A stretch of DNA of 24,000 nt, taken from assembly GCA_963777935.1 (NCBI GenBank), contig CAVZSL010000006.1:317287-341286 (forward strand), in the 5' to 3' direction. Position numbers and translations under genes: made by a program. This document shows positions 1-16,760 of this stretch, piece by piece. This DNA is from an uncultured Chloroflexia bacterium (lineage in GTDB: Bacteria > Chloroflexota > Anaerolineae > Anaerolineales > UBA4823). The first letter of the stretch is position 1. Each line of letters starts with the position of its first letter. A model generated the notes under the pieces. That model saw nothing but the letters and a program-made list of their open reading frames with translations. It did not search any database and had not been told where the DNA came from.

Positions 1-147
1 CGCGCCAGCTACAGATTCCAGGTTGGGAACCATTCGGTGAATTCAGCGGTTGCTTCAATGGCACAATGAGCCGTACCTCGAGGGTGACTACATAGAGCTG
101 AGTAATGGAAGTCTGGTGCGCCTGCCTGACCTATCGTTTTGAAAATT

Positions 148-183
148 GAAACCTCCTGGTGAACATGCCAGGAGGTTTCTTTC
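148..183. terminator. Candidate bidirectional rho-independent terminator
   Basis: Perfect 12-bp inverted repeat GAAACCTCCTGG (148..159) / CCAGGAGGTTTC (168..179) with an 8-nt loop. It is followed by TTTCATT on the + strand and AATTTTCAAAA on the - strand. It lies between an unresolved + strand 3' end and the stop (263) of the - strand redoxin gene. Confidence 0.55.
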
Positions 184-262
184 ATTCGGTAATAAACAGA
201 AAATTTATAAATAACATGGATTGCTCCAATTAGTTGTATCCTGACTGGTAGTTGACTTAAAA

Positions 263-739
263 TTAAGCATGCACAACTTCCAAGCTATCCAATAATTCCA
301 ATATCTCAGCATTGGATGGAATATCGGTCATATCATGACCATAATGTACATAACGAGCAACCCCATCATTATCCACGATCACCTGGGCTGGCATGCGCCC
401 AAATTTGAACAGGTTGATTTCCTGACCGTATAACTTGAGAACGCTTGCTTTAGGATCTGGTAAGCCGATGAAAGGCAGATTGTGTGTATGAAAATAAGTT
501 GCAAAGGCTTTGGGATCTTCTGGACCAACCACAATCACTTGAGCCTGCCGTTTGACAAATTCCTGATAATCCCTGCGCAACTGCGCCATATGCATTCGGC
601 AGAATGGTCAGGTAAAACCGCGGTTAAAAACCAACAATACACTCGATGTGCCTCGATAGTCGGATAAGTGTATTGTTTTACCTTTATAATCTATAAGGGT
701 AAAATCAGGCGCAGGGGTATTCAACGAGACTCTTGGCAT
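263..739 (-). CDS. Peroxiredoxin-like (AhpC/TSA-redoxin family) thiol-disulfide oxidoreductase, probable selenoprotein; 158 codons with in-frame TGA (U44) at 608..610
   Basis: The ORF track gives only 263..595 (MHMAQL...). Reading the same frame upstream gives MPRVSLNTPAPDFTLIDYKGKTIHLSDYRGTSSVLLVFNRGFT-TGA-PFCRMHMAQLRRDYQEF... This is a canonical redoxin N-terminus (APDFTL, LSDYRG, VLLVF), and the TGA sits where Cys homologues carry the first Cys of CxxC. The ATG at 737..739 is preceded by AAGGAAG. The next upstream stop in frame is at 767..769. Confidence 0.72.
545..604 (-). promoter_or_regulatory. Candidate bacterial SECIS-like stem-loop immediately 3' of the in-frame UGA
   Basis: On the mRNA, CUGCCG (602..597) can pair with CGGCAG (550..545). 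An apical GCGC-AGUU-GCGC hairpin lies at 586..575, and its loop begins 25 nt after the UGA. Hand-folded only; the asymmetric internal region is not convincingly paired. Confidence 0.3.
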
Positions 740-1724
740 TGGTTTCTTCCTTAGGTTGAGTATCATTCAGATATTTGATTACAGCCTCCAAAAACGCTTG
801 TGGTTTTTCCTCATGTGGTACATGCCCGGATTCAGCGATCACCACCAGGCTGGCATTGGGTAGCTCGGCTGCCAGGCGGATGCTATCTTTGGTAGGGATT
901 ATGCGGTCGTCATCGCCGGTAATCACCAATACTGGCACACTTATCTCATCCAGTCGTTTGGTTAAACCAATTGGCCGGTTGGCAAGGGTGAACTCCCACA
1001 GCGCTTTATCCCAATTCTCAACCTGGTAAGGTTTCTTATAAAACTCCATCATCTCCGGGGGTAATAATGCAGGGTTATGCCAGGCCAATTTGATTAAATC
1101 AGGACCGCGTTTTAAGATCTGGCGGGCGATCAATGGTCCCAGGCGACGCATTTGTGGGGTTGCAAGGATGGGCTTCATCCATTGCGGGGCCCCTCCACCG
1201 TTATAAACGGCCGGATCGACCAGGATCAGTGCTGAAACACGCTGCGGATATGCCAGTGTTGTCTGCATTGCCACAGTTCCCCCTGCTGAGTTGCCCACCA
1301 GAATAGCCCTCTGAATACTAAAGTGATCCAGTAATTTCACCGCTATCTCTACCTGCGTCTCAGCGCTGTAGGGGTTCTGTCTTTGCCAGGTTAGGGGACG
1401 CTCAGAGAGGCCAAACCCAGTGCGGTCATAGGCAATCACCGTTCCAAGCCGGCTAAGGGGTTCCATGACATCATGCCAGGAGTACAAGCTGGAAGCAAAT
1501 CCATGCATTAGAAGAAAAACTGGCTCACCCTGTCCCATCTTTTTTACGTGGATATCCAACCCATTAATCGCAACGAATTGGGAGTCTTCATCTGCCAATA
1601 CCTGGGGAGGGAAGGTATTTTTAAGTGGTTTTATAGGAATAAGCAAGGGTCCAACCGCCACAACGACCAATCCGCCTGCTAATATTAGGAAACTATTACG
1701 CTTTCGGGACCGATGCATGCTCAT
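705..1724 (-). CDS. Membrane-anchored alpha/beta-fold hydrolase
   Basis: 339 aa. N-terminal TM segment FLILAGGLVVVAVGPLL, HGFASS region, nucleophile elbow GNSAGG, and GDDDRIIP plus SGHVPHEE near the C-terminus (Asp/His of the triad). The 3' end overlaps the redoxin gene start by 35 nt. Confidence 0.85.
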   Translation of the reverse strand: MSMHRSRKRNSFLILAGGLVVVAVGPLLIPIKPLKNTFPPQVLADEDSQFVAINGLDIHVKKMGQGEPVFLLMHGFASSLYSWHDVMEPLSRLGTVIAYDRTGFGLSERPLTWQRQNPYSAETQVEIAVKLLDHFSIQRAILVGNSAGGTVAMQTTLAYPQRVSALILVDPAVYNGGGAPQWMKPILATPQMRRLGPLIARQILKRGPDLIKLAWHNPALLPPEMMEFYKKPYQVENWDKALWEFTLANRPIGLTKRLDEISVPVLVITGDDDRIIPTKDSIRLAAELPNASLVVIAESGHVPHEEKPQAFLEAVIKYLNDTQPKEETNAKSLVEYPCA

Positions 1725-1731
1725 ATTTCGA

Positions 1732-2505
1732 TTATTGAACAGGTTGAACTGAAGATGTTTTATCAGGCATAATGAATGCCAATATCAGGGTCATGGCCAC
1801 CAGTCCGAAGGTGATCCAGGTGGGAATGGCGATCGCAGGGATATTCGCAAATTTGACCGAAATTCCTGCCAAAGCCCACAGGATAACCGCGGTATAGGCA
1901 ATGTCTCGCCGGGAAAAATTCATCAATGTAGCGATCACAAACACCGCCACCAGGATGATATACATCCAGACTTCAGCGGCAATCCCGAATCCATCCCAAT
2001 TCAGGAAATAGAGCAATTCGGTGATATTGGCAATCGTCGCTACCGTTATCCAACCCAGGTAGATACTGAATGGTACGCGTACTGCCCAGGTCTCTGCCCT
2101 AGAGACACTACTCCGACCAGTGCCCAGACCCAGGTAGGTGATAATGAGTGTGCCAAGCAATACCAACATGGCGACCAGTGTCAAAGTGAACAGCTCATAG
2201 TGCCACAGGAAGATCCAGGCGATGTTTGCTAATCCTCCGAGGGCTATCCACCAACCAGTAGCTCGCAGGCGTGGATTCTCACGTTGAGAAGGAAGCGCCT
2301 GAAAGATGGCAAAGGCAATTAATCCGATATAAATCACACCCCAAATAGCAAATACATAGCCGGCAGGCACAAAATAAACCTTAAAGCGATCTGAGATTGC
2401 ACCAGTATTTAAGCCATTAATGGGCAAGGCATTGGCAAGCACGTTGACCACGATGGTAGCAAGAATAGTCAATGCTACAGAAACTTGTCGTAGGATATCT
2501 TTCAT
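1732..2505 (-). CDS. TspO/MBR-related tryptophan-rich integral membrane protein (putative)
   Basis: 257 aa and polytopic. The N-terminal NALPINGLNTGAISDRF...FVPAGYVFAIWGVIYIGL and the Trp-rich WWIALGGLANIAWIFLWHYE resemble the long 'tryptophan-rich sensory protein' homologues as I remember them. Not HMM-verified. Confidence 0.5.
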   Translation of the reverse strand: MKDILRQVSVALTILATIVVNVLANALPINGLNTGAISDRFKVYFVPAGYVFAIWGVIYIGLIAFAIFQALPSQRENPRLRATGWWIALGGLANIAWIFLWHYELFTLTLVAMLVLLGTLIITYLGLGTGRSSVSRAETWAVRVPFSIYLGWITVATIANITELLYFLNWDGFGIAAEVWMYIILVAVFVIATLMNFSRRDIAYTAVILWALAGISVKFANIPAIAIPTWITFGLVAMTLILAFIMPDKTSSVQPVQ

Positions 2506-2506
2506 G

Positions 2507-2887
2507 TTATTCTCTCACTTTCAATTCTAATATAGTATTTTTTCGTCCATCCCGATTTCCGGTCCAAGAAAATATTGTTTTCATTAGACCGTATTTTTTA
2601 CTCAACAAGCGATCGACCATACGGTCGATTTCCTGATTCGAGATTTCGCGGGCTTCTGCTTGAACCCAATCGCTAAGTAACGTGCCATCCATTTTACATG
2701 GTGCAATGTTCACCTGTGAATTATAACGGATGCGTTTCACCTTCCCTGAATCAGCAATTGTGCGGATATATAACTCTTGACCATCCTGGACAAACCAAAC
2801 TGGAGTTCTCACACCCACACCGCTCTTCCGGAAGGTTTCCAGATTTAGATATTTTTGTTTTTCAAACGCGGGAAACATAATAATCAT
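2507..2887 (-). CDS. Pyridoxamine 5'-phosphate oxidase-like (PPOX class, possibly F420/flavin-dependent) protein
   Basis: 126 aa. [47 protein letters not shown] resembles small PPOX-class split-barrel proteins. The start ATG overlaps the photolyase stop (ATGA at 2884..2887), and the stop lies 1 nt before the next gene's start. Confidence 0.6.
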
Positions 2888-4285
2888 CTTCCTCCTTTAC
2901 GATAAGCTGCCAATGCGCGTTCCCTTGCCATGGCATGGTCAACGATTGGGGCAGGATAGTTCTTTCCGATCACACAACCCACCTGAGTTTGCATATTGGT
3001 AGGCATCTTCCATGGCGTGTGGATAAATGCATCTGGAACTCGTGATAACTCCGGAACCCAGTGGCGTACATAGGCGCCCAGTGGATCGTATTTTTTCCCT
3101 TGCAGGACAGGATTGAATAGCCTGAAATATGGCACTGCATCGGTACCAGTGCCAGCTATCCATTGCCAACCACCATTATTGGCTGCCGGATCACCATCAA
3201 GCAGGTGCTGCATAAAATATCGCTCTCCCTGCCGCCAATCGATCAATAAATCTTTGGTCAGGAATGAAGCTGTGATCATGCGCGCCCGGTTATGCATCCA
3301 ACCGGTGGCATTTAGCTGGCGCATACCAGCATCCACCACTGGATACCCGGTGTATCCATTAACCCAGGCATCATATCCAACTGCGTCATCCCGCCATGGG
3401 ATCTTACGCAGCTCTGGACGGAAGGCGCCCTGGCGCACATGTGGAAAATGATAGAGGATGGTGGCATAAAACTCACGCCAGATCAGCTCGTTCAGCCAGG
3501 TTTTGACACTTTGACGTACTGTTGGGTCTGTTGCTAATGCCTCCGCTTCATGTGCTGCCCATGCTGCCTGCCTGGCTGAAAGCATACCAAAACGCAGGTA
3601 GGGCGATAAACCTGATGTACCTTCTACATCCAAGCGGTTGCGATCTTCGGTATAACGATTGATCAACGAATCAGTGAACCTTGCCAACCTCGTTTGTGCC
3701 TCTTCTTCACCAGCAGGAAATAATTCTTTATATGAATAACCTGGAAAATCAGGCGATAACCATGCTAATAAGGGGAGGTAAAGCAGGCAATCGCTCAGGT
3801 GGCGGGAGTGGTTTGCCAGGAAAAGGCAGGCTGTGCCACATCCGGCTGAATGGTGTGAACATAATATACGGTGAGCCATTGGGCTTTAGCAGTTCTTCAG
3901 CAGGGTGAACGGTGATGCCATTGGTAAGCTCGAGTGGTAATTCACGTATCACGCGTGCATCGCGCTGCCTACCGTATGGTGAAACATCTGCCTCGGCAAA
4001 GATACCTTCAACTTCAGCCTCATAACACAAACTTCGCAGCACATCCAGGGGTTGTCCCTTTCGTATGATAAGCTTGCTCCCCCGCTGGCGTAATTCTGAA
4101 TCGAGTGAACGTAAACCCTCAAACAGGAAAGCTAAACGCTGTTGGCTGATGTATGGCGAGTCCAGTAACTTGGGGTCAATGATAAATACCGGGATGACCA
4201 CTTCTGCCTTTAATAAGGCAGTTGCCAATGCCTGGTTATCTCGCAAGCGTAAGTCTCGGCGAATCCACCAAATTGCTCTTTTCAT
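2884..4285 (-). pseudogene. phr: Deoxyribodipyrimidine photolyase (cryptochrome/photolyase family) split by a frameshift into 3749..4285 (N-terminal alpha/beta domain) and 2884..3879 (FAD-binding domain)
   Basis: The N-terminal ORF begins MKRAIWWIRRDLRLRDNQAL...[12 protein letters not shown]. The C-terminal ORF contains [81 protein letters not shown]. The two frames overlap at 3749..3879. Genuine sequence resumes in the second frame at ...[20 protein letters not shown], so the shift lies at about 3750..3790 and looks like one extra nt. Confidence 0.85.
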
Positions 4286-5538
4286 CAGATAGTCTCTTCA
4301 GCCACCTTCTCGCGGTTAGCTGGACGGATGATACGCCAATAGGCAAGGACAATCGTCCAGGCCATCAGGATAGCACTAAAAACACCTGGCGCCCATACAC
4401 CCAGATGTTGCAGCAGGTAACCCCCGGCGATAGGGGCAATAATTCGGGTCACTGCTTCGAGAGATGTGGTTATACCAAGAATACCTCCCACTTCCTGTCG
4501 TGTGACGGATTTGGTGGTAGTACTTTGGATAATGGTATTCGATACCCCTCCAGCAACTGCCAGAGGCAAGATCAATACCACCAGGATCCATAGCTGTGTA
4601 GCAAAAGACCAGGCGAGTAATGCGCCAGCCATGACCCATAGTCCGGTGATCATCAAGGAATTTTCTCGGAAGCGACGGGTCAGGAAACCAATCAACCCAG
4701 CTTGGGTCACCACGGCTAAGACTCCCACATACGCCAGCAAAATCCCAGTAGTCTGCGAGCTCAAGCCAATCGTCTGAGCATAAAGGGCAAATATGGTTTG
4801 AAATATAGCAAAAGCGAGTGCGTAGAAGAACCGTACCTGGAGCAGGGGACCAACTTTTGGACGATTAAGCGCCTCCTTGAGAGCATTAAATGTGAACGGT
4901 GGACGTCTTTGCCCGGATATAGTACTCCTTCGGTCAGCGGAAAGTGATTCAGGTAGAAAAAATATGATCATTAGCACGTTGATGAAGGATACTGAAGCAG
5001 CTACAAAGGCAGGTAAGCTGTATCCCCACTTGCTGAGTGCGCCGCCTACAGCTGGTCCGATAATGAAACCCAGTCCAAATGCCGCACCGATCAATCCCAA
5101 GCCTTTGGCGCGGTTTTGATCATCCGTGACATCGGTGATATATGCCTGTGCGACTGTGATATTACCTCCAGTCAGTCCATCGATGACACGACTTAAAAAC
5201 AACACTGCCAAGACAAATGCATTTGCCGCTTGTGGAGCAATCAAATCCGCTAAGAAATGACCGATGGGATCGGCAAAACCAAGCAGCAAGAATCCAATTC
5301 CTGTACCAATCACGCTTATCAGCAAGACCGGTCGTCGGCCAATTCGGTCTGATAATCTCCCAAGCAAAGGCGCACCGATCAACTGAGCTGCTGCATAGGA
5401 TGCTACCAGCAAGCCAACAATAGTCGGAGTTGCACCGTAGGCTTCAGCATAATACGGTAATAAGGGTAAGATCAGGCTAAAACCCAACAGATCGATAAAA
5501 ACAATTAGAAAAATGGTCAACAAACGCGAATTTTTCAT
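4285..5538 (-). CDS. MFS transporter (DHA1/Tet-like family)
   Basis: 417 aa, about 12 TM. LLGFSLILPLLPYYAEAYGATP and the GRLSDRIGRRPVLL motif (MFS loop 2-3). The stop overlaps the photolyase start by 1 nt (TGATG). Confidence 0.85.
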   Translation of the reverse strand: MKNSRLLTIFLIVFIDLLGFSLILPLLPYYAEAYGATPTIVGLLVASYAAAQLIGAPLLGRLSDRIGRRPVLLISVIGTGIGFLLLGFADPIGHFLADLIAPQAANAFVLAVLFLSRVIDGLTGGNITVAQAYITDVTDDQNRAKGLGLIGAAFGLGFIIGPAVGGALSKWGYSLPAFVAASVSFINVLMIIFFLPESLSADRRSTISGQRRPPFTFNALKEALNRPKVGPLLQVRFFYALAFAIFQTIFALYAQTIGLSSQTTGILLAYVGVLAVVTQAGLIGFLTRRFRENSLMITGLWVMAGALLAWSFATQLWILVVLILPLAVAGGVSNTIIQSTTTKSVTRQEVGGILGITTSLEAVTRIIAPIAGGYLLQHLGVWAPGVFSAILMAWTIVLAYWRIIRPANREKVAEETI

Positions 5539-5582
5539 TGGTAATACTCTAATCAGCTATACTAAACTGGCCACCCAATTGT

Positions 5583-6878
5583 TTATAGGGACATCTCATA
5601 CTTTGCCAGCTGGACTTGTATGATCGATGCATCTTCTCCAAGGTAATGTTCAACCTCAATGCGATATGTGGCGTAATATTCATTCACCAATGATGCGGAG
5701 AGACCATAAGTTTTAAACATGCCATTCAACCAGAAAATGGTGTGATCTAATAAATTAATATCACCTAATTCAAGTGCTGATGTAATGGACTGGTTGAGGT
5801 TTTCATTGGCATTGTCCAATTGAGCTGGTTTAATCAGCGCAGAACGAAAAGAAGAGGATACATGCGTCACAACAGCCCATTCATTTTGAAGATATTTTGT
5901 CAATATTTGGGTATATTGGAGAGGTACAGGTAATGCGGAGGGCATTGGAGGAGGTGCAGAAATGAGTTGTTCAACCGTCTGGGGAATGCTTTCCACATCA
6001 GTTCCCAGGAAATAGCCTGAGATACACTTGGTGGCGGCAGGAACCTGGTTAAAAATTCCACCTCCATACGCCAGAGGTACAGACTGTGTGATTAGGTATT
6101 CAGACACTGCGCGGAGTGAAGCGGCAGTTTTGAGTGTCTGAGCAGTCGAGAGTATCAGAATTGGTGATGTGGATCGGATGGTTGCATCCAGGTCTATGAG
6201 AGGCACATTGGACCCGAGATAAACCACATCCCAACCACGCCTTCGAAGCAAGAAAGTGATTACCAATAAAATGAAATCGTGTTCCTCACCCGGTGGGCAG
6301 GCTGTCAGGATACATCCTGGTCGAATGGGTGGGGCAGCTGCTGCCAGGAGAGTATTAATACGCCGAATGGCGATGGCCGACGTGAAATGCTCCTGTTGAA
6401 CACTTACAGACCCAGAGTACCATCCCTCCCCGACCAGTGCCAGGCCTTTCTGAAGAACTTCGCTAATGGTCATTTCTGGGGCAGTCACAGCGAATGCTTC
6501 ATCAAGTATTCGGTTGGCACCCTGGTCGTCAAACGCTAAACAAGCCGATACCCATCGCGCTCGCAGAATATCTAATATACTTTCACCCGTTCCGATTTCA
6601 GGTACAGGTGTTCGACCATGTTGTAAGCTATCCTGATCATATTGGTGTTGGTTTTTCCACATTTCCATGGCGCTACTGATGCTCAATCCTTCTGCTTGCC
6701 TCTCGATCAACCATTTCAGCATCTCGATATCTTGTCTGGAGTAGAGCCGGTGTCCACCGGGCGACCGCTTGGGCTTGAGAAGATCATATCTCCGCTCCCA
6801 AGCCCGTAAAGTCACTGGGTTTATCCCAACCTCATTGGTCACAGCTTTTAGATTATAGAGGGGTGTATTGTCTACCAT
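5583..6878 (-). CDS. MerR-family transcriptional regulator with cobalamin-binding domain (CarH/LitR-like light sensor) plus ~125-aa C-terminal extension
   Basis: N-terminal MerR HTH (YNLKAVTNEVGINPVTLRAWERRYDLLKPKRSPGGHRLYSRQDIEMLKWL). W153-x9-E163-H164 (GEGWYSGSVSVQQEHF) matches the Wx9EH motif of AdoCbl photoreceptors. The Rossmann-like B12 domain is CPPGEEH200DFILLVITFLLRRRGWDVVYLGSNVP ... AYGGG. Residues ~306-431 have no domain I recognise. Confidence 0.85.
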   Translation of the reverse strand: MVDNTPLYNLKAVTNEVGINPVTLRAWERRYDLLKPKRSPGGHRLYSRQDIEMLKWLIERQAEGLSISSAMEMWKNQHQYDQDSLQHGRTPVPEIGTGESILDILRARWVSACLAFDDQGANRILDEAFAVTAPEMTISEVLQKGLALVGEGWYSGSVSVQQEHFTSAIAIRRINTLLAAAAPPIRPGCILTACPPGEEHDFILLVITFLLRRRGWDVVYLGSNVPLIDLDATIRSTSPILILSTAQTLKTAASLRAVSEYLITQSVPLAYGGGIFNQVPAATKCISGYFLGTDVESIPQTVEQLISAPPPMPSALPVPLQYTQILTKYLQNEWAVVTHVSSSFRSALIKPAQLDNANENLNQSITSALELGDINLLDHTIFWLNGMFKTYGLSASLVNEYYATYRIEVEHYLGEDASIIQVQLAKYEMSL

Positions 6879-6956
6879 ACCGATTACTTTCGCCTTTAAT
6901 AAATATATATTATTTAAGAAACTGCGTACACCCTATTTACATTAATCTGCAAAAAT

Positions 6957-7727
6957 TTATACCGGTGCTAAGGTGCCTGCAAAGATGATCCATGCCAGGA
7001 CGGTCTTTGCAGTCAGGCTCAGGATCACATACACCCGTTCACCAAACAAATAATCTTTCCATGGACCAACCTTCTTATATTGCAAAACCATGTTAATTGC
7101 AAAGATATTGAAGAACACAAAAAGGGTTGGGATGATGGCATATACGAAAGCAGGTGGTTTGCCACCTTCCCCTACTAAAGATCCCAAGAAGTAGGTCACA
7201 ATTACGATCCAGGGGACAATCCCTGCAATGCAACCAAAAATGAAAGCGGTCCAGTTGGTTTTCTGCGTATTCTGGTTGTGAAGCTCCATCAAGAGCCCAA
7301 ACAGGTTCATCATGGCGTTGATGCCAAAGATAAGAATGATGGCGCCAAGGTCATAAATACCTACCAGCATTCCAATCAGCACGATCATCACAGACGAAGA
7401 AAGTGCATATTCATAAAACCGGACTGGGTTCATGCCCTTTTTTAAGTTGGAAACATATAACTTATAGCCAACTGTAGCGAGGAAGAAATGCGCTACTGCC
7501 GAGAGAAGTAGAAATACGGCTACCGCTGGACCAAAGAGTAATTCAGCAGCTATCTTTGGATCGGGTACTAAAGCCATTGTTGCTGTATCAAACTTGAGGA
7601 AATTAGTGTAAATTGGATAAGCGGTATCATTGCTTAGTATGATCATCAGGAAGCCCTGTATCAAGTGCAAAAAACCCATGCTTAAGTTAAAACGTCGTAA
7701 TCCTAAATACTTTTTTTCTTCGTCCAT
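6957..7727 (-). CDS. Heliorhodopsin (retinal-binding 7-TM photoreceptor)
   Basis: 256 aa. FLHLIQ (H21), AVAHFF (H80), RFYEYALSSSVMIVLI (E106), FGCIAGIVPWI, FVYAIIPTLFVFFN and GERVYVILSLTAKTVLAW (K241, codon 7005..7007) parallel the conserved blocks of heliorhodopsin 48C12 as I recall it. AGGAGA lies 5 nt upstream of the ATG. Confidence 0.85.
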   Translation of the reverse strand: MDEEKKYLGLRRFNLSMGFLHLIQGFLMIILSNDTAYPIYTNFLKFDTATMALVPDPKIAAELLFGPAVAVFLLLSAVAHFFLATVGYKLYVSNLKKGMNPVRFYEYALSSSVMIVLIGMLVGIYDLGAIILIFGINAMMNLFGLLMELHNQNTQKTNWTAFIFGCIAGIVPWIVIVTYFLGSLVGEGGKPPAFVYAIIPTLFVFFNIFAINMVLQYKKVGPWKDYLFGERVYVILSLTAKTVLAWIIFAGTLAPV

Positions 7728-7773
7728 TGTTGTCTCCTATTCTGTTATTGCCTGCTATATATTCTTATCCATC

Positions 7774-7848
7774 TCTATAGAAGGATTGATTGAAAATTTA
7801 GCAAATGTACACATTGTGTATAAATAATAATAACATATTGTATAGATA
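7774..7848 (-). promoter_or_regulatory. Heliorhodopsin promoter region with four tandem 11-bp direct repeats (candidate CarH/LitR-type operator)
   Basis: The minus strand reads TATCTATACAA (7848..7838), TATGTTATTAT (7837..7827), TATTTATACAC (7826..7816), AATGTGTACAT (7815..7805). All four have A at position 2 and T at position 5, and three have ACA at positions 8-10. The array abuts TTGCTA (7804..7799, -35-like). TATAGA/TCTATA (-10-like) lies 17-19 bp further on, about 45 nt before the ATG. Confidence 0.45.
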
Positions 7849-8089
7849 TTGGCAAGATTATTTAGATTAAGGTTTGATTAAAAAGCTGAGATTCCATCAC
7901 TTCGGGAAAAGTGAGTTATAACTCCAACAGCCCCCATCAAAAGATACGCAGGTGCAATGCAAATAGGCTACTAGATTTTTCAACCAAATCCACCTGATTT
8001 TTCCCCTGATAAGTTAAAAATTTTTGCCTTATTCTGTAAATCTTCTTGCCGGTTGGTACTAGAAAAAATTTTCCTTTGGTCAGTGATTA

Positions 8090-8129
8090 AAACAAAGAAA
8101 AAATGAGTGTATATCTGTGTTTCTCACTC
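8090..8129 (-). terminator. Weak rho-independent terminator candidate after crtI
   Basis: On the minus strand, GAGTG (8129..8125) / CACTC (8109..8105) form a 5-bp stem with a 15-nt loop, followed directly by ATTTTTTCTTTGTTTT. The stem overlaps the crtI stop codon. Confidence 0.3.
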
Positions 8130-9614
8130 CAATCCTGCAAGCTCATCCACAATCCTCTTTGCCGCCAAACGACCAGAGATCATGGCTGTTGGTATGCCCG
8201 TGCCAGGGCGGGTACTTGCCCCCACAAAGTACAGGTTGCGATACCGTGGGTGTCGGTTGGATGGGCGAAAATAGCCTAATTGGCCCAGGTTATGTGACAA
8301 ACCGTGTGTGGAACCCTTCACCAGGTTATATCGTTTCCGCCAGGAAAGGGGAGTAAAAGAGACTTCAAACTTGATGTGGGTATGGAGATCAGTGATTCCC
8401 AACAATGCCAATCGACGGAACACATGTGCACGCGCCTGATCTGTCAATTCGTCCCAATCCTGGGATCCATCTTCAGACAGGTGACCCACAGGCACGACTG
8501 CGATCAGGGTATCTTCACCGGGCGGAGCCATTGAAGAGTCGAGCTGCTTGGGAGCGTGAATATAAAGACTTGGATTGGCAGGAAGGCCAAGCTCATTTGT
8601 GATGGTATCGAAGTTTGACTGAAAATCATCTGCCAGAAAAAGGGTGTGCGGATCAAGAATCTTATAGGGTTTATCAACTCCCCAGAAGAAACTGATCACT
8701 GAGCAGGAATAGCGTTTTCGGGTCATCTTTTCAGCCCGGTAATCTATGGGCAGGAGATCCTGATAAACATATGGCAAATCAGCATTCGCCAGGACCAAAT
8801 CTGGTGATTCACGCTGGTTATGTTCAAGTACCAACTCCTCTACTCGCTTGCCGTTTGCAGTAATTTGCTCCACGGTTGTATCGAAAGCAAATTCCACCCC
8901 GGCATTGCGGGCCAATGTCATAAGCGCTTCCACGATGCTATACATTCCACCCTTGGGATACCATACACCGTGTGCAAGCTCTGTGTATGGCATCATAGAG
9001 AAGGTGGCAGGAGCTTCAAAGGGGCTCAGTCCCATGTACACATCCTGGAAGGTGAAGGCTGCCTTTAGGTGCGGATTCCGGAAATAACTCGACATATGGG
9101 CATAATGATTCCTCAGGGGTTTTAACTGATAGAGTAAGGGAATATTGCTGAAATTAAAAAAGTCGGAAAATCGGCGAAAATCACGGTTCACTAATTTATC
9201 CATCGCTAAACGATAATGCCGCTCACCTTCTGCATGATAGCGCATGAATCCTTGATAGGCACCATGCTCTATGGACTCCAATTGATCCCGCATGGACTGC
9301 ATATCTGATGTGAGTGCCAGCTGGCTGCCATCATCAAATACCAGGCGATAAGATGGATCTACCTGGTGCAACTCGAGTAAATCAGCTATCGAACCACCCA
9401 GGGAGGCAAATTCTGCCTCGTAGACAGGCTGCATAACCATCAGGGTTGGTCCGGTATCAAAGTGGTGACCCTCTCGCTCGATCCAATCACAGCGCCCACC
9501 GGGGTTGGCGTTTTTTTCCATCACAGTGACATGCAACCCATGCTTAGCCAGGTGGATTGCCGCACAAATTCCACCCACACCAGCGCCGATAATCACAACC
9601 GATTTCACCTTCAT
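8124..9614 (-). CDS. crtI: Phytoene (or diapophytoene) desaturase, CrtI family FAD oxidoreductase
   Basis: 496 aa. N-terminal dinucleotide fold VVIIGAGVGGICAAIHLAKHGLHVTVMEKNANPGGRC. C-terminal FVGASTRPGTGIPTAMISGRLAA is typical of CrtI/CrtN. Strong SD (GAGGTGAGGAAGG). The ATGA overlap with the upstream synthase gene is at 9611..9614. Confidence 0.85.
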   Translation of the reverse strand: MKVKSVVIIGAGVGGICAAIHLAKHGLHVTVMEKNANPGGRCDWIEREGHHFDTGPTLMVMQPVYEAEFASLGGSIADLLELHQVDPSYRLVFDDGSQLALTSDMQSMRDQLESIEHGAYQGFMRYHAEGERHYRLAMDKLVNRDFRRFSDFFNFSNIPLLYQLKPLRNHYAHMSSYFRNPHLKAAFTFQDVYMGLSPFEAPATFSMMPYTELAHGVWYPKGGMYSIVEALMTLARNAGVEFAFDTTVEQITANGKRVEELVLEHNQRESPDLVLANADLPYVYQDLLPIDYRAEKMTRKRYSCSVISFFWGVDKPYKILDPHTLFLADDFQSNFDTITNELGLPANPSLYIHAPKQLDSSMAPPGEDTLIAVVPVGHLSEDGSQDWDELTDQARAHVFRRLALLGITDLHTHIKFEVSFTPLSWRKRYNLVKGSTHGLSHNLGQLGYFRPSNRHPRYRNLYFVGASTRPGTGIPTAMISGRLAAKRIVDELAGLE

Positions 9615-10579
9615 CCTTCCTCACCTCGATCGGTCAGTGCTGCTTGCAAACCGGGTTCCAGGCTCATCCAAGGAATGTTTAATACCGATAATGTTGTCCT
9701 CCAGACCATCCACAATCCGGCCTTAAGACTTTTCCGTTCAGGGTATTCAGGACGAAGATAATATCCGTCCTGTTCTATAGCTCGCATCATCCATTCGAAA
9801 CGGGCCAGGTAAGCAAAACCTGCCAGGCGACAACGAAAACTTTTAACCTGAGCGATATAGCTCCTGCCATCCTTAAAATATTGACGGGCAAGCTTCACCC
9901 TCCCAAAAACCCACCTGCGGAAAGACAGGCTATGTAATTCATCCAGCGAAATTTGCTGTTCGGTGATGTATTCTCCAGGAACATTGATATACCCTGCGGA
10001 AATATCTTCAACCACATCGCGCAGCATATGCACCACATGGGCGCCATTCACAGCATCATAGCGGTTTTTAGTTCTGGTAGGAGAATCCTCATGACCAATA
10101 AAGTAGAATAATAGCTCCGTCACTGCTGTGGAAAGTAAATGTGTATACTCGGTTAATTCAGCCTGGGAGATCACTTGACCGCAGCGTTCCACGTCAAAAG
10201 CCATTACTGCCATCATATTGCGGAGGTAGATTTGTAATCCACTGTCCTTTTTCCCATCATTTCGGACCAAATCCACCAGCATCTGCTCCTCCAGACTCAC
10301 ATCATCAGGTTGGTTTCCTTGATAACATGCTTCCAAAAGTGCCTGCTGGCTTTTTATTAATGCAACCTTCTCCGGTTGTGTGCCTGAATCACAGTCGAGG
10401 AGATCGTCCAACCAGCGGAAGTAGGCGTAAGACCGAAATGCATCCTGCACGCGATCTCGATCGGTTAAAAGACGGAACGTATAATAGGTTTGCTTACTTC
10501 CGGCCTTGGTGATCTTGGCAGGTAAATCGGATTTACCCGGTTGCACAGGTAGTCTTTGATTTATTGGGTTATTGACCAT
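9611..10579 (-). CDS. crtB: Phytoene/squalene synthase family protein (CrtB/CrtM-like)
   Basis: 322 aa. First Asp-rich motif YFRWLDDLLD, second motif MLRDVVEDISAGYINVPGEY. Directly coupled to crtI. Confidence 0.78.
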   Translation of the reverse strand: MVNNPINQRLPVQPGKSDLPAKITKAGSKQTYYTFRLLTDRDRVQDAFRSYAYFRWLDDLLDCDSGTQPEKVALIKSQQALLEACYQGNQPDDVSLEEQMLVDLVRNDGKKDSGLQIYLRNMMAVMAFDVERCGQVISQAELTEYTHLLSTAVTELLFYFIGHEDSPTRTKNRYDAVNGAHVVHMLRDVVEDISAGYINVPGEYITEQQISLDELHSLSFRRWVFGRVKLARQYFKDGRSYIAQVKSFRCRLAGFAYLARFEWMMRAIEQDGYYLRPEYPERKSLKAGLWMVWRTTLSVLNIPWMSLEPGLQAALTDRGEEG

Positions 10580-10775
10580 GGCATTAGCAGTTTTCCTGGT
10601 TTCGACCTACAAGTATACTCCTGAAATTATTACAGAGAATCATGTCTCCTTCCTCAGAAAATCATAAGTTTTTCTGTATATTTATTCCCCTAAGTAACGT
10701 GAATGTCTCCCCGTTCACTAGTAGTGATAAGATTAACAAAATATTAGGACGAGATATTTACGTCTGGAGGGTATT

Positions 10776-11897
10776 ATGGACGCTGACATGCAAGCTACGG
10801 CATTAGCTAGCCTGAACGATGAGCTCAATGGGGCATATCTTTATGATGCACTGGCGCAAGCTGAGAAAGATCCCCGCCTGGCAGAAGTATATCGGCGCAT
10901 GGCAGCCGTAGAGCGTAAACACGCGGCCACCTGGGTGGAACGTCTTAAGGAATCTGGTGTGGCAATCCCTAATTTTAAAACCAATTGGCGCAGTCGCACC
11001 CTGGCTTGGGCAGCCAAACACCTGGGTGTGGGAGCGGTATTACCCACTGTGATTGGGAATGAGCGCAAAGATACTCGCAAATATGCCTACACTCCGGGTG
11101 GCGCAGAGATGGGAGCAGATGAAGCATCCCATAACCGGTTGTTGAGCCTTGTGGCCAGGGATATGAAAGGTGGAATGGAAGGCGGGGCACTCGCCCAACT
11201 GGAAGGCAGGCATCGTGCGGGTGGAGGGAATGCCCTACGGGCAGCGGTATTGGGAGCTAATGATGGGCTGGTATCCAACTTGAGCCTGGTGATGGGTGTG
11301 GCAGGTGCTTCTCTGAATAACTCGGCTATCCTGATCACTGGTTTTGCTGGACTATTGGCTGGGGCAATCTCGATGGCATTGGGTGAGTGGCTGTCGGTGC
11401 AAAGCTCCAGGGAGCTATATAAGCATCAGATCAGCATTGAGAAGGCGGAGCTTGCTGCAGCACCCCAGGAAGAAGCCGAAGAACTGGCGTTGATCTACGA
11501 GGCACGCGGCCTACCCACCGATGAAGCCCAACGCATGGCTCAGCATATCATCAGCGACCCAGAATCTGCTCTTGAAAGCCTTGCCCGTGAAGAGCTCAAC
11601 GTGGATCCTTCTGAACTGGGTGGCTCAGCCTGGGAGGCTGCCTTAACGTCCTTCTTCCTTTTCTCCATCGGTGCGATCATCCCGGTGCTGCCGTACACCT
11701 TCCTGAGAGGCACCACTGCAGTGACCGTCAGTATGGTGATGAGCGGTGTTGGGTTATTTATCATCGGCGCGGGCATCACCCTTTTTACGGGGCGAAACGT
11801 GCTGTATTCAGGCGTACGGCAGGTGTTGTTTGGCTTGGCTGCAGCCACAGTCACCTTCGGCATTGGCCGGGTGATCGGAAAGAACCTGGGTGGGTAG
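10776..11897 (+). CDS. Erythrin-VIT1 fusion: ferritin-like N-terminal domain + VIT1/CCC1 iron/manganese transporter (MbfA-like)
   Basis: 373 aa. The N-terminal di-iron-like helices are YLYDALAQAEKDPRLAEVYRRMAAVERKHAATW and DEASHNRLL. The C-terminal part has GANDGLVSNLSLVMGVAGA and the TM helices typical of the VIT family. GGAGG lies 5 nt before the ATG. Confidence 0.8.
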   Translation: MDADMQATALASLNDELNGAYLYDALAQAEKDPRLAEVYRRMAAVERKHAATWVERLKESGVAIPNFKTNWRSRTLAWAAKHLGVGAVLPTVIGNERKDTRKYAYTPGGAEMGADEASHNRLLSLVARDMKGGMEGGALAQLEGRHRAGGGNALRAAVLGANDGLVSNLSLVMGVAGASLNNSAILITGFAGLLAGAISMALGEWLSVQSSRELYKHQISIEKAELAAAPQEEAEELALIYEARGLPTDEAQRMAQHIISDPESALESLAREELNVDPSELGGSAWEAALTSFFLFSIGAIIPVLPYTFLRGTTAVTVSMVMSGVGLFIIGAGITLFTGRNVLYSGVRQVLFGLAAATVTFGIGRVIGKNLGG

Positions 11898-11904
11898 GAG
11901 CACA

Positions 11905-11929
11905 GTGTACACATTCACCATGTGTATAT
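11905..11929. other. 10-bp inverted repeat/hairpin in convergent intergenic region; contains a near-copy of the heliorhodopsin operator repeat
   Basis: GTGTACACAT (11905..11914), loop TCACC, ATGTGTATAT (11920..11929), with two G-T pairs. There is no flanking T-tract on either strand. TGTACACATT is identical to 7806..7815, and TGTGTATA also recurs at 7816..7823. Confidence 0.4.
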
Positions 11930-11953
11930 ATTAAATATCCTATGACGAGGCAA

Positions 11954-12952
11954 TCACGCATTGTTTTCAGGAAGGGCTCTCTTCATTGCAGCAATCAGCT
12001 GATCTTGTACTCCATCGATATGTGAATCAACCACCTGGCGGGAGTTATCCTCATCATACCAGGCGATAATCTCCCGCGCTCCCTGCCAAAATGGGATTGT
12101 GGATCTAAATTGGGGCACTAACTGGCGGATTTTACGATTATCAAAGATCACGCTATGGGCTTTATCACCCAGCATGGAAGCGCCCCACTCCGGATCATAC
12201 CTGGCGATAAGATCAGATGGGACATGTACCAGATGCGGCTCAACACCTGCAGCCTGGGCAACGATGGTGTAGATTTGGTTCCAACTCAAGGTTTCATCAG
12301 AAGTAATGTGGAAACTTTGGCCGATGGATTGTGGATTACCCAGCAGTCCAACAAAGCCAACCGCGAAATCACGATGGTGTGTCATCGTCCATAGTGAGGT
12401 CCCATCACCTTGCACGATCACCGATTTGCCTGCGCGCATCCGCGCAACGGTTGTGTAGCCTCCATGGAAGGGAAGCAAGGTGCGATCATAGGTATGAGAT
12501 GGTCGCACGATGGTGTAAGGGAAACCCTCCTGAAGTCCAGTGAGTTCCAGGAGAGTCTCACAGGCGGCTTTGTCACGCGAGTACTGCCAGAAGGGATTAT
12601 CTAAGGGTGTGCTTTCTGAGATAGGTAAAAATCCAGGCGGTTTCTGGTATACAGAAGCTGAGCTAATAAAAATATATTGCCTGGTGCGTTTGCGAAATAG
12701 TGCCAGATCAGTTTTAACTTGGTCTGGGGTGAATGCCACCCAATCCACCACTGCATCAAATTTCAAATCACCCAATGCTCTATTTACCGAAGCAGGTTGT
12801 CGGATATCAGCACGAAGAGAAATTGCACCCTGCGGAGTAGGACGAAGGCTCTGCCCACGATTAAGCAGATATAGATCAAATCCATGTTGAATCGCCAGTT
12901 CTGAACAAGCTGAGCTGATAATTCCGGTTCCACCAATGAATAATACTTTCAT
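11954..12952 (-). CDS. NAD-dependent epimerase/dehydratase (extended SDR family)
   Basis: 332 aa. N-terminal MKVLFIGGTGIISSACSE Rossmann motif and the YxxxK-type region YSRDKAACE. AAGGA SD. Confidence 0.8.
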   Translation of the reverse strand: MKVLFIGGTGIISSACSELAIQHGFDLYLLNRGQSLRPTPQGAISLRADIRQPASVNRALGDLKFDAVVDWVAFTPDQVKTDLALFRKRTRQYIFISSASVYQKPPGFLPISESTPLDNPFWQYSRDKAACETLLELTGLQEGFPYTIVRPSHTYDRTLLPFHGGYTTVARMRAGKSVIVQGDGTSLWTMTHHRDFAVGFVGLLGNPQSIGQSFHITSDETLSWNQIYTIVAQAAGVEPHLVHVPSDLIARYDPEWGASMLGDKAHSVIFDNRKIRQLVPQFRSTIPFWQGAREIIAWYDEDNSRQVVDSHIDGVQDQLIAAMKRALPENNA

Positions 12953-14082: not shown

Positions 14083-16692
14083 ATGTCTCCTCAGCTGCTG
14101 GTCACAAAACTTTATACCCCACCTGCACGTAAAGGTCTTGTCACGCGCCAGCGTTTGATCCAGTTGTTGAATGATGCTTGGCAGCAGGATAAAAAACTCA
14201 TCCTGGTCTCAGCATCGGCTGGTTATGGAAAGACCACTCTGGTGACCGAATGGTTGCGAGGCTTACAGGAAAAATCCGCATGGCTATCCCTGGACGAAAC
14301 CGATAATGATCCTACCAGGTTCCTTGCTTATCTCATCGCCGCGTTACAGATTATAGACAAAAGTATCGGGGATAAAACTCAGGCAATGCTCCAGTCACCC
14401 CAGCCGCTTCCACCTGAGGTGGTGCTGACCACACTTATAAACGAAATAGCCCTCACCCCCCAATCCTTTATCCTCGTACTGGACGATTATCACCTGATCC
14501 AGACCTTGCCAATCCACAAGCAGCTCGACTTCCTGGTGGAACACCTGCCTGCTCAAATGCACCTGGTTATCATTACGCGTGAAGATCCACCTCTTCCACT
14601 CTCCCGATTACGCGCCTGTGGTCAGATGGTCGAGATCCGGCAGAACGACCTGCGTTTCTTACCCGAGGAATGTGCAGATTTCCTACAGCGGATTATGGGA
14701 CTTAATCTCGAAACCGATGATATCACCGCTCTAGAACGCCGAACCGAAGGTTGGATCGTCGGTTTACAACTAGCTGCTATATCGATGCAAGGGCGAGATG
14801 ACCTGTCTAATTTCGTCGAGGAATTCACAGGCAGCAGCCACTACATTTTGGATTATTTAATCGAGGAAGTGTTTGAACAGCAAACACTTGAAACCCAGGA
14901 ATTCCTTTTGAAAACCTCGATCCTTAACCGCCTGTCTGGACCGCTATGCGATTTCGTTGTAGAGCGAAGAGGTAGCCACGAGCTGCTCGACCAATTTGAA
15001 CATGCCAACCTGTTTATCTTCCCACTTGACCAATCGCGTAGCTGGTATCGCTATCATCGCTTATTTGCTGAGTTATTACAGCAGCGCCTACACGCCATTG
15101 ATTCATTATCCGTAAATATGCTTAACAGTCGTGCAAGCCAGTGGTTTGCCACTGAGGGGTTCATCCCCGAAGCCATCCACCATGCACTGGATGCATCCGA
15201 TTGGGAGCAGGCAGCTAAACTTATTGCCGATTGCACGGTCCTAATGTTGAGAAGTGGTGAATTGTTGACGCTGATCGGTTGGCTCAAAGCTTTACCCAAT
15301 GAAGTAATCTTCACCCACCCGGAGCTGTGCCAAAACTATGGTTGGGCATTAACCCTCACCGGGCAGATGGAAGCTGCAGACATATATCTCTTACAAGCAG
15401 AGAAAATTGCCCGGGACGACGAGACTTTATTAGGACCTATCCTGGTCGCCCGGGCATACCACCTGCGCGTGTGTGGAAATGTTATTCAGGCGATTGATTA
15501 TGCTCAGCGAGCGTTATCGATCCTTCCCCAGTCGGATGCATTATCACGCGGCCTGGCTGCACTCACGCTCGGTCTGGCATATTGGAATCTGGGAGATTAT
15601 CAAGAATCAGAACGGGCATTTATAGAGGTTGAGCGCGCTGCTCAACAGTCAGGAAACAATTATGCCCGCATGACCGCTCGCTCATACCTGGGGAACATCC
15701 AGGCAGTTTATGGACATCTCCATAAGGCAGCTGAGTTGTGCCAACAGGTAATCCAATCGGGAGGGCAATCACCATACGTTGCTCCTGCCCATATTGGGTT
15801 AGCAGCACTTTATTATGAGTGGAATCAACTGGACCAGGCCTCTCAAGAGGCCCAAATTGGGATCGACCAGAGCCAGCGCACGGGCAATCCACTGATCTTA
15901 TGTGATGGCTACCGTATCAAAGCAGTCATATATCAGGCACTTGGCAATCCTGAGGTTGCCCTGTCGACGCTTAAAAACGCCGACCAGCTGGTTCTCAACC
16001 AGCTGGTTTCTCCACTCGCCCGTTTACGCATTGCTGCCTGCCATGTTCAGGTTGCACTGGCACAGGATAATCACACAGCGGCTCAGTTTTGGGCAGAACA
16101 GGTGACCGATCCATCTGGTGCATCTTTATATGATCCCTGCCTTGGTCTCACTCCAATTCATATTTATCTAGCTCGTCACAAGAAAAAAGAAGCCGCACAA
16201 AGGCTAAGCGAGCTCTACAATATCGCCTCGCAAAAAAGCTGTGGTGCTGGGATGGTTGAAATCCGTCTACTACAAGCCATGGCAGCGGAATCTCCACAGG
16301 GTGCACTCCAGTTTATGAAGAAAGCCTTAAAAATGGCACAACCTGAAGGCTTCATCCGCATTTTCGTTAATCAAGGGGAACCGGTGAAGAAACTGCTAGA
16401 AAGATTAAAATCCCAAGGGGGCGACATGAAAGAGTATATTCTTACCCTGCTCGCTTCTTTTGGGGAGACCAGCAAGGTATCAGCCTCACGGGGGTTGGTT
16501 GAACCCTTGAGCGAGCGTGAGCTGGATGTATTACGCCTCCTGGAGCAAGGATTGTCAAATGGGGAGATTGCAAGGCGTTTGGTGGTTACCACTGGAACAG
16601 TAAAAAGCCATGTCCACAACATTATTAATAAGCTGGAGGTGAGTAACCGCGCTCAGGCAGTTGTACAGGCAAAGGCGCTAAAGCTGATATAG
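14083..16692 (+). CDS. LuxR-family transcriptional regulator, MalT-like large ATP-binding (LAL/STAND) type
   Basis: 869 aa. N-terminal P-loop SASAGYGKTTL and Walker B-like FILVLDDYH. The central region is helical and TPR-like. The C-terminal LuxR HTH is LSERELDVLRLLEQGLSNGEIARRLVVTTGTVKSHVHNIINKLEVSNRAQAV. Confidence 0.9.
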   Translation: MSPQLLVTKLYTPPARKGLVTRQRLIQLLNDAWQQDKKLILVSASAGYGKTTLVTEWLRGLQEKSAWLSLDETDNDPTRFLAYLIAALQIIDKSIGDKTQAMLQSPQPLPPEVVLTTLINEIALTPQSFILVLDDYHLIQTLPIHKQLDFLVEHLPAQMHLVIITREDPPLPLSRLRACGQMVEIRQNDLRFLPEECADFLQRIMGLNLETDDITALERRTEGWIVGLQLAAISMQGRDDLSNFVEEFTGSSHYILDYLIEEVFEQQTLETQEFLLKTSILNRLSGPLCDFVVERRGSHELLDQFEHANLFIFPLDQSRSWYRYHRLFAELLQQRLHAIDSLSVNMLNSRASQWFATEGFIPEAIHHALDASDWEQAAKLIADCTVLMLRSGELLTLIGWLKALPNEVIFTHPELCQNYGWALTLTGQMEAADIYLLQAEKIARDDETLLGPILVARAYHLRVCGNVIQAIDYAQRALSILPQSDALSRGLAALTLGLAYWNLGDYQESERAFIEVERAAQQSGNNYARMTARSYLGNIQAVYGHLHKAAELCQQVIQSGGQSPYVAPAHIGLAALYYEWNQLDQASQEAQIGIDQSQRTGNPLILCDGYRIKAVIYQALGNPEVALSTLKNADQLVLNQLVSPLARLRIAACHVQVALAQDNHTAAQFWAEQVTDPSGASLYDPCLGLTPIHIYLARHKKKEAAQRLSELYNIASQKSCGAGMVEIRLLQAMAAESPQGALQFMKKALKMAQPEGFIRIFVNQGEPVKKLLERLKSQGGDMKEYILTLLASFGETSKVSASRGLVEPLSERELDVLRLLEQGLSNGEIARRLVVTTGTVKSHVHNIINKLEVSNRAQAVVQAKALKLI

Positions 16693-16726
16693 GTAACCTG
16701 TCCGCCGGATGATGAACAAATCCCAT

Positions 16727-16759: not shown

Positions 16760-16760
16760 A

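Follow-up and report, generated by a model that had tools for sequence, protein, structure and literature searches.

The window analyzed here is a stretch of 24,000 nucleotides (nt) from an uncultured Chloroflexia bacterium of soil or sediment (assembly GCA_963777935.1, contig CAVZSL010000006.1, positions 317,287 to 341,286), in which ten co-directional genes occupy positions 263-10579 of the minus strand. This block is composed of two predicted transcription units, a pair of genes named crtB-like and crtI and a unit of eight genes that begins with a heliorhodopsin (HeR) and includes a regulator of the CarH type. We propose that the eight-gene unit is an autoregulated operon which is derepressed by light and controlled by an operator at the HeR promoter. 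The proposal builds on features observed directly, namely the anatomy of the locus and its junctions, the architecture and conservation of the operator, the signature residues of the regulator and the recurrent co-localisation of the genes. Co-transcription, induction by light and the biochemical roles of the products are inferred, and we put the probability of the whole reading at about 0.68. The original prediction for this DNA had treated the ten genes as a single block; the crtB-like/crtI pair, however, has a promoter-like motif of its own without CarH repeats.

Predicted promoter and operator upstream of the heliorhodopsin gene

The sigma-70-like site that ranks best in the block, TTGCCA-17-TATTAT preceded by a TG (positions 7855-7827), is located about 95 nt before the start codon of the HeR gene. 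Within the same region (7806-7855, minus strand) five hexamers follow each other in an exact register of 11 bp: TTGCCA, TATACA, TTATTA, TATACA and TGTACA. The array consists of three full TnnACA repeats and two pseudo-repeats and spans from the -35 element to about +15. Of the pseudo-repeats, TTGCCA is the -35 element itself and TTATTA overlaps the -10 element TATTAT. The pattern TnnACA-22-TnnACA-11-TnnACA matched once in the window compared to 0 of 100 shuffles, and it matched only once on both strands of the whole 3.8-Mb host genome, a metagenome-assembled genome (MAG) of 13 contigs with a completeness of 92%. The layout of promoter and repeats before HeR was kept in 12 congeners. All genomes compared in this study are MAGs, the relatives are not independent of each other and the lengths of the flanks differ among the loci.

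Published CarH operators are built from tandem 11-bp repeats of the type nnnnTnnACAn, three or four in number with pseudo-repeats, which overlap the -35 or the -10 element (PMC9304148). Based on the agreement with this design, the repeats at the HeR promoter are regarded as a CarH-type operator. The transcript most likely begins before HeR, at the site of the operator-bearing promoter, and not at the regulator. The spacer between HeR and the regulator was not conserved in the congeners and contained neither a repeat nor a conserved motif.

Related pairs of repeats were present in distant Anaerolineae. Within 200 nt upstream of carH, pairs of the form NNTACA-N5-NNTACA were found nine times in six loci versus 0.21 expected, a figure which is inflated by kinship among the loci. 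The analysis suggests that in several distant Anaerolineae carH has an operator-controlled internal promoter. At three loci the pair GGTACA-N5-TGTACA occupies the short interval from the crtI-like match to carH, in a position at the end of the crtI-like gene or slightly past it (L103 1691-1707, L104 9930-9946 and L114 9925-9941). The operator pattern was not found near the HeR modules of distant lineages which lack an adjacent carH.

Most of the two-repeat matches elsewhere in the host genome are intragenic and resemble chance occurrences. Three tandem TnnACA repeats (TCTACA/TTCACA/TTCACA) were located in an intergenic region of another contig (G000:C5:574751-574778; L205 152-179). The gene downstream of them encodes a small membrane protein whose C-terminus forms a zinc-ribbon (CPNCG...CPYCG). 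This site may be a second CarH target.

Arrangement of the eight-gene unit

The unit is composed, in this order, of HeR (6957-7727), the CarH-type regulator (5583-6878), a DHA1-type efflux transporter of the major facilitator superfamily (MFS, 4285-5538), a frameshifted class I cyclobutane pyrimidine dimer (CPD) photolyase (phr, 2884-4285), a PPOX-class F420-dependent oxidoreductase of the Rv2061 subfamily (2507-2887), a seven-helix membrane protein of 257 amino acids with a TspO-like five-helix core (1732-2505, here named TspO-like), an N-terminally anchored alpha/beta-fold hydrolase (705-1724) and a predicted AhpC/TSA-fold selenoprotein (263-739, here named Sec). The list of open reading frames (ORFs) confirmed all ten minus-strand genes of the block at their given positions as well as every junction figure reported before. 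HeR and the regulator are separated by 78 nt and the regulator and the MFS gene by 44 nt. Further downstream the MFS gene overlaps the photolyase gene by 1 nt (at 4285), which in turn overlaps the PPOX gene by 4 nt (2884-2887). Gaps of 1 nt and 7 nt follow between PPOX and TspO-like and between TspO-like and hydrolase, respectively, and the hydrolase and Sec genes share 35 nt (705-739). Translational coupling of these genes, as originally put forward, is supported by the arrangement. To call it extreme goes too far, since overlaps of 1 and 4 nt are the commonest junction classes of bacterial operons.

A strong bidirectional intrinsic terminator is located at the end of the unit (148-179, both strands). 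Behind its hairpin of 14 pairs, 7 of them GC, each strand has a T-run (AATTTTC on the minus and TTTCATT on the plus strand), and a convergent gene lies beyond. A simple scan of the unit itself (7727 to 263) detected no convincing terminator, with weak sites only, all within coding sequence and none at a junction. Neither a riboswitch nor any other RNA family was detected by an Rfam scan of positions 1-12000. At the sequence level the unit thus shows what is expected of a single operon: one promoter, no internal terminators, a terminator at the end and a conserved order of genes.

The genes could also form a light-stress island of several units, in which the operator governs only HeR and the regulator while the genes from MFS to Sec are transcribed from one or more internal promoters. 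We consider this unlikely. The cassettes are modular, as MFS, phr, PPOX and Sec are each missing in some congeners, but after the loss of a cassette the remaining genes close up equally tight, with only 14 nt between carH and TspO-like in L045. A promoter could be placed in the 44-nt gap before the MFS gene, and weak promoter-like hexamers are present within coding regions; from the MFS gene onward, however, the junctions are overlaps or gaps of at most 7 nt, so that a promoter there would need to be in coding sequence. Other Anaerolineae have the same genes in different orders, also where CarH is missing. On the other hand, the position of the weak terminator-like sites away from all junctions and the lack of a conserved motif in the spacer between HeR and carH both argue against a division of the unit.

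The regulator

The regulator carries an N-terminal MerR-type helix-turn-helix (HTH) (Pfam MerR_1, 49.5 bits, residues 8-73) and also matches Pfam B12-binding_2 and B12-binding. Its residues W153-x9-E163-H164 align to the motif of the Thermus CarH (TtCarH) which caps the adenosyl group, and PPGEEH200 aligns to PPGERH of TtCarH, where the histidine is the lower axial ligand in the Rossmann B12-binding domain. Across 27 family members W153, H164 and H200 were invariant and E163 nearly so (at least 90%). The earlier designation as a CarH/LitR-like protein is borne out by these alignments. No other CarH-like gene was found in the genome.

In addition, the regulator has a C-terminal extension of approximately 135 residues (about 295-431, window positions 5583-6020), in which a conserved L-G-D...W motif is present. 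This domain had no match in Pfam or NCBIfam. A profile of the C-terminal 145 residues did not retrieve any photocobilin chain from the PDB, the hits being noise (a designed helical protein and SipD, E >0.05). The AlphaFold (AF2) model of the regulator reached a pLDDT of 88, with values above 90 in the C-terminal domain. According to Foldseek, the model matches full-length CarH with an E-value of about 1e-15, and the photocobilins 8j2w, 8j2x and 8j2y match better (TMq 0.62, TMt 0.77-0.81) compared to a TMq of 0.40 for the CarH B12 domain alone. Judged from the model, the most fitting description of the protein is that of a CarH-type repressor to which a photoglobin-like domain has been added.

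It is rather improbable that the regulator is a B12-, bilin- or redox-responsive MerR repressor, comparable to the B12-independent CarA or to other cobalamin-binding regulators, and that the operon answers to the cofactor or oxidative status instead of light. The residues required for the photochemistry of adenosylcobalamin (AdoCbl), that is the Trp, the Glu-His and the axial His, are invariant or nearly so in the 27 members, the operator follows the design known for AdoCbl-CarH, and the cargo is related to light (HeR and photolyase, with carotenoid genes nearby). What speaks for such a repressor is its score below the NCBIfam cut-off for CarH, the extra C-terminal domain with its photoglobin-like fold and the negative search for a canonical heme oxygenase (PF01126), which could supply biliverdin, in the 92% complete genome.

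Conservation within the genus and the class

In total, 15 loci of the same genus were fetched, 13 of which hold the regulator. HeR was the first gene in all 12 loci that reach so far. The regulator was followed by TspO-like in 13/13 loci, with MFS, phr and PPOX as optional genes in between, and the hydrolase came after TspO-like in 12 of these 13; Sec was optional as well. The junctions remained tight despite missing cassettes: PPOX and TspO-like were always separated by 1 nt, and TspO-like and hydrolase often overlapped by 4 nt.

A second set comprised 80 loci anchored on the regulator, from Anaerolineales, Caldilineales, Ardenticatenales, Promineifilales and others. Within a range of 10 kb, photolyase was found in 27 loci, crtI in 24, MFS in 16, Sec in 11, TspO-like in 9, hydrolase in 8, PPOX in 5 and HeR in 4. 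The orthologues which cluster with CarH in these distant loci shared 43-73% identity, and those of the MFS transporter were 54-73% identical to the protein of the window. Strings such as crtI-carH-MFS-phr-hydrolase-(P450)-PPOX recurred in L096, L102 and L106. In L106, an Anaerolineales MAG, a cytochrome P450 and a protein of 264 amino acids without a family match are encoded between hydrolase and PPOX (15068-17127). The latter was considered as a member of the TspO-like family and rejected as unrelated.

HeR itself was present in 60 of 401 genomes of the class. Among 39 HeR-anchored loci from other species, 16 had one or more orthologues in a range of 8 kb (hydrolase 10, photolyase 7, Sec 7, MFS 5, TspO-like 4 and CarH 3). 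Here the order of genes varied, as for example phr-PPOX-PPOX-TspO-like-hydrolase-HeR-Sec in L179. Functional coupling typically shows itself in this way, by a membership that is conserved while the order changes. That the block merely reflects ordinary strand-biased packing of genes without a shared function, the theme arising only from the labels, is highly improbable: most labels do name broad superfamilies (MFS, alpha/beta hydrolase, PPOX, AhpC/TSA), but specific orthologues (about 43-87% identical) recur by CarH and HeR, shuffled and in many species, which would not happen by chance for single-copy genes in genomes of 3-6 Mb.

The synteny around CarH homologues that had been suggested as a test is therefore present, as a conserved arrangement in the genus and as recurring orthologues in the class. 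The nomination of the MFS, PPOX and hydrolase genes as candidates for a light module was likewise justified, since their orthologues, together with those of TspO-like and Sec, recur by CarH and HeR across Anaerolineae. The adjacency of HeR and CarH was mostly confined to the genus of the window and a few others. For this reason HeR would seem to have joined a cluster around CarH that is older.

Proposed mechanism

Transcription of the operon would start at the sigma-70-like promoter of HeR and end at the hairpin at 148-179. In the dark, the AdoCbl-loaded regulator would oligomerise on the five phased repeats and block RNA polymerase, in analogy to the CarH proteins of Thermus, Bacillus and myxobacteria. 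Light from UV to green would photolyse the cofactor, upon which the oligomer would disassemble and the operon, including the gene of the regulator, would be transcribed. Judged by their families, the photolyase would repair DNA, HeR would modulate partner proteins in a light-dependent manner and the MFS transporter would serve efflux. The TspO-fold protein and the F420-PPOX might handle photosensitising tetrapyrroles, the anchored hydrolase might turn over damaged lipids or cofactors and the UxxC selenoprotein might act in thiol or peroxide redox repair.

In other bacteria HeR is known to bind photolyase and an ABC transporter. Biliverdin reductases belong to the wider F420-dependent PPOX-class family. 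The tetrapyrrole theme, which draws on the TspO fold, on these biliverdin reductases and on the bilin-type domain of the regulator, is put forward as a hypothesis only. A more elaborate version, speculative and quite unlikely, would be a unit with three chromophores. Here, a DNA-binding photocobilin (with B12 and perhaps a bilin) would switch on the retinal-containing HeR together with the TspO-fold protein and the F420-PPOX as tetrapyrrole handlers. The latter would supply, modify or clear the second chromophore, or clear porphyrins, and HeR would tune the photolyase, the MFS transporter or the hydrolase by direct binding. If true, this would extend photocobilin biology by an output at the level of transcription and by a branch dedicated to tetrapyrroles, and it would define a set of HeR partners in Chloroflexota.

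Several observations weigh against the light-derepressed operon under CarH control. The gaps of 78 nt and 44 nt could house internal promoters. The regulator is a distant member of its family (NCBIfam CarH NF052513, 139.8 bits versus a cut-off of 400), and with its extra domain it may depart in its behaviour from the model CarH proteins. With respect to the source of retinal for the two HeRs of the genome, a search at a completeness of 92% yielded no RPE65-type carotenoid oxygenase; blh (PF15461) was not found either, in a search that is uninformative as 0 of 14 control genomes matched. In other lineages the accessory genes are present although CarH is not adjacent and no repeats can be recognised, thus control by CarH is not obligatory for the module.

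Finally, the photolyase gene carries a +1 frameshift due to an extra base near 3755-3765 when compared with the intact genes of L036, L041 and L046. It is therefore represented by two overlapping ORFs, an N-terminal one (3749-4285) and a C-terminal one (2884-3879), which carry the Pfam domains DNA_photolyase and FAD_binding_7 separately. Many similar breaks were present in the congeners G007 and G021, and another gene of the host genome appears split. The related MAGs have the appearance of long-read assemblies that contain indel errors. On these grounds the frameshift could equally well be an assembly error or mark a true pseudogene.

Comparison with known systems

Regulons of CarH/LitR that contain carotenoid and photolyase genes are textbook knowledge. 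Like the operons of this kind in Thermus thermophilus, Bacillus megaterium and Myxococcales, the unit combines a repressor of MerR-HTH and B12-binding domains, with Wx9EH and the axial His, and a tandem 11-bp TnnACA operator over the -35/-10 region. It also shares autoregulation, which is predicted here, and the presence of carotenoid and photolyase genes within the regulon or next to it. Unlike these operons, it has HeR as the first gene, a regulator with an added photoglobin-like domain and an operator whose five phased repeats comprise three full ones and two pseudo-repeats. Its cargo of an MFS transporter, an F420-PPOX, a TspO-fold protein, a hydrolase and a selenoprotein is different as well, and the carotenoid genes appear to be outside of the operator-controlled unit.

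Only three partner proteins of HeR, whose function is so far understood in small part, have been shown experimentally. The locus represents a compact and conserved set of candidate HeR partners, for which a simple logic of control can be predicted. AhpC/TSA, photolyase, PNPOx, MFS and cobalamin-binding proteins were previously reported as neighbours of HeR genes (Chazan et al., bioRxiv 10.1101/2021.02.16.431466), and redox as well as carotenoid/photolyase genes were described near HeRs (Bulzu et al., PMC8612252). A further survey distinguished ten classes of HeR operons, which include photolyase, MerR regulators and alpha/beta hydrolases, the MerR-class operons being without other grouped genes (PMC11109279). 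The earlier view that the MFS, PPOX and hydrolase families have no assigned role in light responses was therefore overstated, since these surveys already name most of the families.

The unit resembles the published HeR operons in that HeR is accompanied by a photolyase, a MerR regulator, an alpha/beta hydrolase, AhpC/TSA, a PNPOx-like protein and MFS; for HeR, a role in the response to light-induced oxidative stress has been proposed. HeR has moreover been demonstrated to bind and stimulate photolyase (Shim et al. 2022, PMC9769723). In contrast to the ten operon classes (PMC11109279), the MerR, photolyase and hydrolase classes are joined in one operon here. A further difference is the predicted CarH operator, which would put the expression of HeR under a second photoreceptor. 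Nowhere in the literature searched was heliorhodopsin paired with CarH by name, and the hierarchy of two light sensors that is predicted here, with a B12 photoreceptor above the expression of HeR, was not named there.

In Mycobacterium kansasii a light-induced cluster of phrB, tspO and the transporter gene mmpL2 has been described (PMC9861118). As in the window, a photolyase, a TspO-type membrane protein and a transporter are joined in one unit. Unlike in the operon of the window, the TspO of the M. kansasii cluster is canonical, the transporter is of the MmpL type and there is no rhodopsin; a B12 regulator is not described at that site.

Photocobilins carry a five-helix globin-like domain that binds biliverdin beside B12 (Zhang et al. 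2024, PMC10979010). The model of the regulator shares with them the four-helix bundle, the Rossmann B12 domain and the C-terminal helical globin-like domain, whereas its C-terminal domain is without sequence-level similarity to the solved ones. Those photocobilins that have been characterised occur on their own or in fusion with a diguanylate cyclase and do not bind DNA, in contrast to what is predicted for the regulator with its MerR-HTH. An architecture of MerR-HTH, B12 and photoglobin domains was predicted computationally (Schneider et al. 2021, PMC8717448). According to the model, the regulator would be a natural DNA-binding example of this architecture, hitherto only predicted, and could be relevant to the design of optogenetic tools.

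Taken as a whole, the eight-gene unit is a recognisable variant of known light-response operons which recurs across the Anaerolineae class. What appears new is the explicit predicted operator that would place HeR under a B12 photoreceptor, and the putative photoglobin-like extension on a DNA-binding CarH suggested by the model. In terms of sequence, the apparent union of three published HeR operon classes in one unit can be added, as can the orthologue-level evidence for the TspO-fold protein, the hydrolase, the F420 enzyme and the UxxC selenoprotein as probable members of the module. Four poorly annotated families are thereby nominated for bacterial light-stress defence in a large and mostly uncultured class: the TspO-fold protein with seven transmembrane helices, the anchored hydrolase, the Rv2061-type F420 enzyme and the UxxC selenoprotein.

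Individual genes of the unit

Curated cut-offs were passed by the heliorhodopsin, the regulator (MerR, B12-binding_2 and B12-binding), MFS_1, both photolyase domains, Abhydrolase_1, AhpC-TSA, the crtI family and TIGR03666. HeR matched PF18761 over the full model (344 bits, 1-242 of 242) as well as NCBIfam NF038020 (373 bits). A second HeR gene with 75% identity to the copy of the window was found on another contig (G000:C13:110687-111418; L194 7983-8741). None of the accessory genes of the block was present near this copy, and a GATACA-N5-TATACA pair is located approximately 1.3 kb upstream, before a small minus-strand ORF. The MFS transporter matched Pfam MFS_1 with 200 bits and, as the nearest NCBIfam entry, the Tet(A/B/C) family with 210 bits, under the cut-off. 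Its orthologues elsewhere near CarH and HeR shared 49-73% identity.

The PPOX protein was assigned by TIGR03666 (108 bits versus a cut-off of 84.9) and gave no match against the sequences of the PDB. Of the genes for the cofactor, cofE (F420 glutamyl ligase) was present with 284 bits; cofH (FO synthase) was searched for without success at a completeness of 92%.

For the TspO-like protein, no match of its own was obtained in Pfam or NCBIfam; PF03073 was absent even at E = 10, and a sequence profile against the PDB gave nothing. Some homologues with 76-96% identity have a precomputed PF03073 match. The AF2 model, which was built from 19 orthologues with a pLDDT of 80, consists of seven helices, the two extra ones being C-terminal. 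Foldseek retrieved BcTSPO (4ryi_A, probability 1.0, TMt 0.68) and RsTSPO (4uc1_B, TMt 0.71) with weak E-values of 0.3-2.6. All other TMt values were at most 0.26, with the exception of one weak partial match (0.48). The relationship to TspO suggested by the original prediction thus holds at the level of the fold and not by family search. Since the modelled protein has two additional helices and misses the Pfam model, it is seen as a protein with TspO fold but not as a canonical TspO.

The hydrolase (Abhydrolase_1, 119 bits) has a hydrophobic N-terminal segment, as read from the translation, and reached no NCBIfam equivalog.

With the in-frame TGA (607-609) read through, the Sec protein matched PF00578 AhpC-TSA with 82 bits (cut-off 26), its nearest solved relatives being AhpE (Rv2238c) and BCP. 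The best NCBIfam entry was "SelL-related redox protein" with 84 bits, under the cut-off of 120. The earlier reading of a selenocysteine in this protein is probably right. The name peroxiredoxin is not appropriate, as the motif PxxxTxxC is lacking and the redox site reads F-T-U-P-F-C (UxxC). The TGA was kept in 19/19 orthologues of the gene, with a conserved reading frame on both sides; 11 of these came from the fetch of the same genus and family (9 from the same genus) and 8 from distant loci, one of which duplicates a locus of the genus. In the genome tRNA-Sec, selA and selB were present, and selD was not found at a completeness of 92%. A small hairpin at 572-587 (minus strand) with a 6-bp stem is a candidate for the apical stem of a selenocysteine insertion sequence (SECIS). 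The stem UGGCGC/GCGCCA with the loop AGUU begins 22 nt past the UGA and is kept in relatives with changes from G-C to G-U. In the window one pair of the candidate hairpin is broken and its minimum free energy (MFE) was no better than that of shuffles.

The crtB-like/crtI pair and its surroundings

The crtB-like gene (9611-10579), the first gene of the separate unit, encodes a divergent member of the squalene/phytoene-synthase family. Its membership in this family is supported by Pfam SQS_PSY with 80 bits. The identity as CrtB, as named earlier, is weak, with HpnD as the best NCBIfam match (61 bits) and CrtB at 25 bits, far under every NCBIfam cut-off for CrtB or Hpn. The second gene, a crtI-family phytoene desaturase (8124-9614), clearly exceeded the cut-off of TIGR02734 crtI_fam (449 versus 238 bits). 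Both genes are joined by an ATGA overlap (9611-9614). The pair is conserved in the genus and sits upstream wherever the contig extends that far.

A conserved promoter-like motif of the form GTAATAAT-N5-6-GGAGTATACTTGT (10609-10635, minus strand) preceded crtB in 12/12 sequences of the genus that were inspected. No CarH-type repeats were seen in this promoter region. In six congeners (L038, L040, L041, L044, L045 and L047) an insertion of 1.8-2.6 kb lies between crtI and the HeR promoter, which in L041 encodes an unrelated protein of 638 amino acids with GH99 and metallophosphatase domains. Because of its own conserved motif without CarH repeats and the intervening segment in six relatives, we separate the crtB-like/crtI pair from the HeR unit. 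In the window the gap between crtI and HeR amounts to 396 nt. The terminator-like hairpin described after crtI proved to be a weak stem before a U-rich tract, not significantly better than shuffles (MFE z = -1.5), and was not picked up by the terminator scan.

Copies of the crtB upstream motif across the genome were uninformative. For the motif, CTGTAAT...AGTATACTTGT...GAAACCAGG, a look-alike was located at G000:C13:132205-132215 (L134 about 306-316), before a gene of the URO-D family. This gene is split in two overlapping ORFs of 229 and 116 amino acids, which suggests a further indel of the assembly. Divergent from crtB, on the plus strand (10776-11897), a protein is encoded in which a rubrerythrin/ferritin-like N-terminal domain is fused to a VIT1/CCC1 iron transporter.

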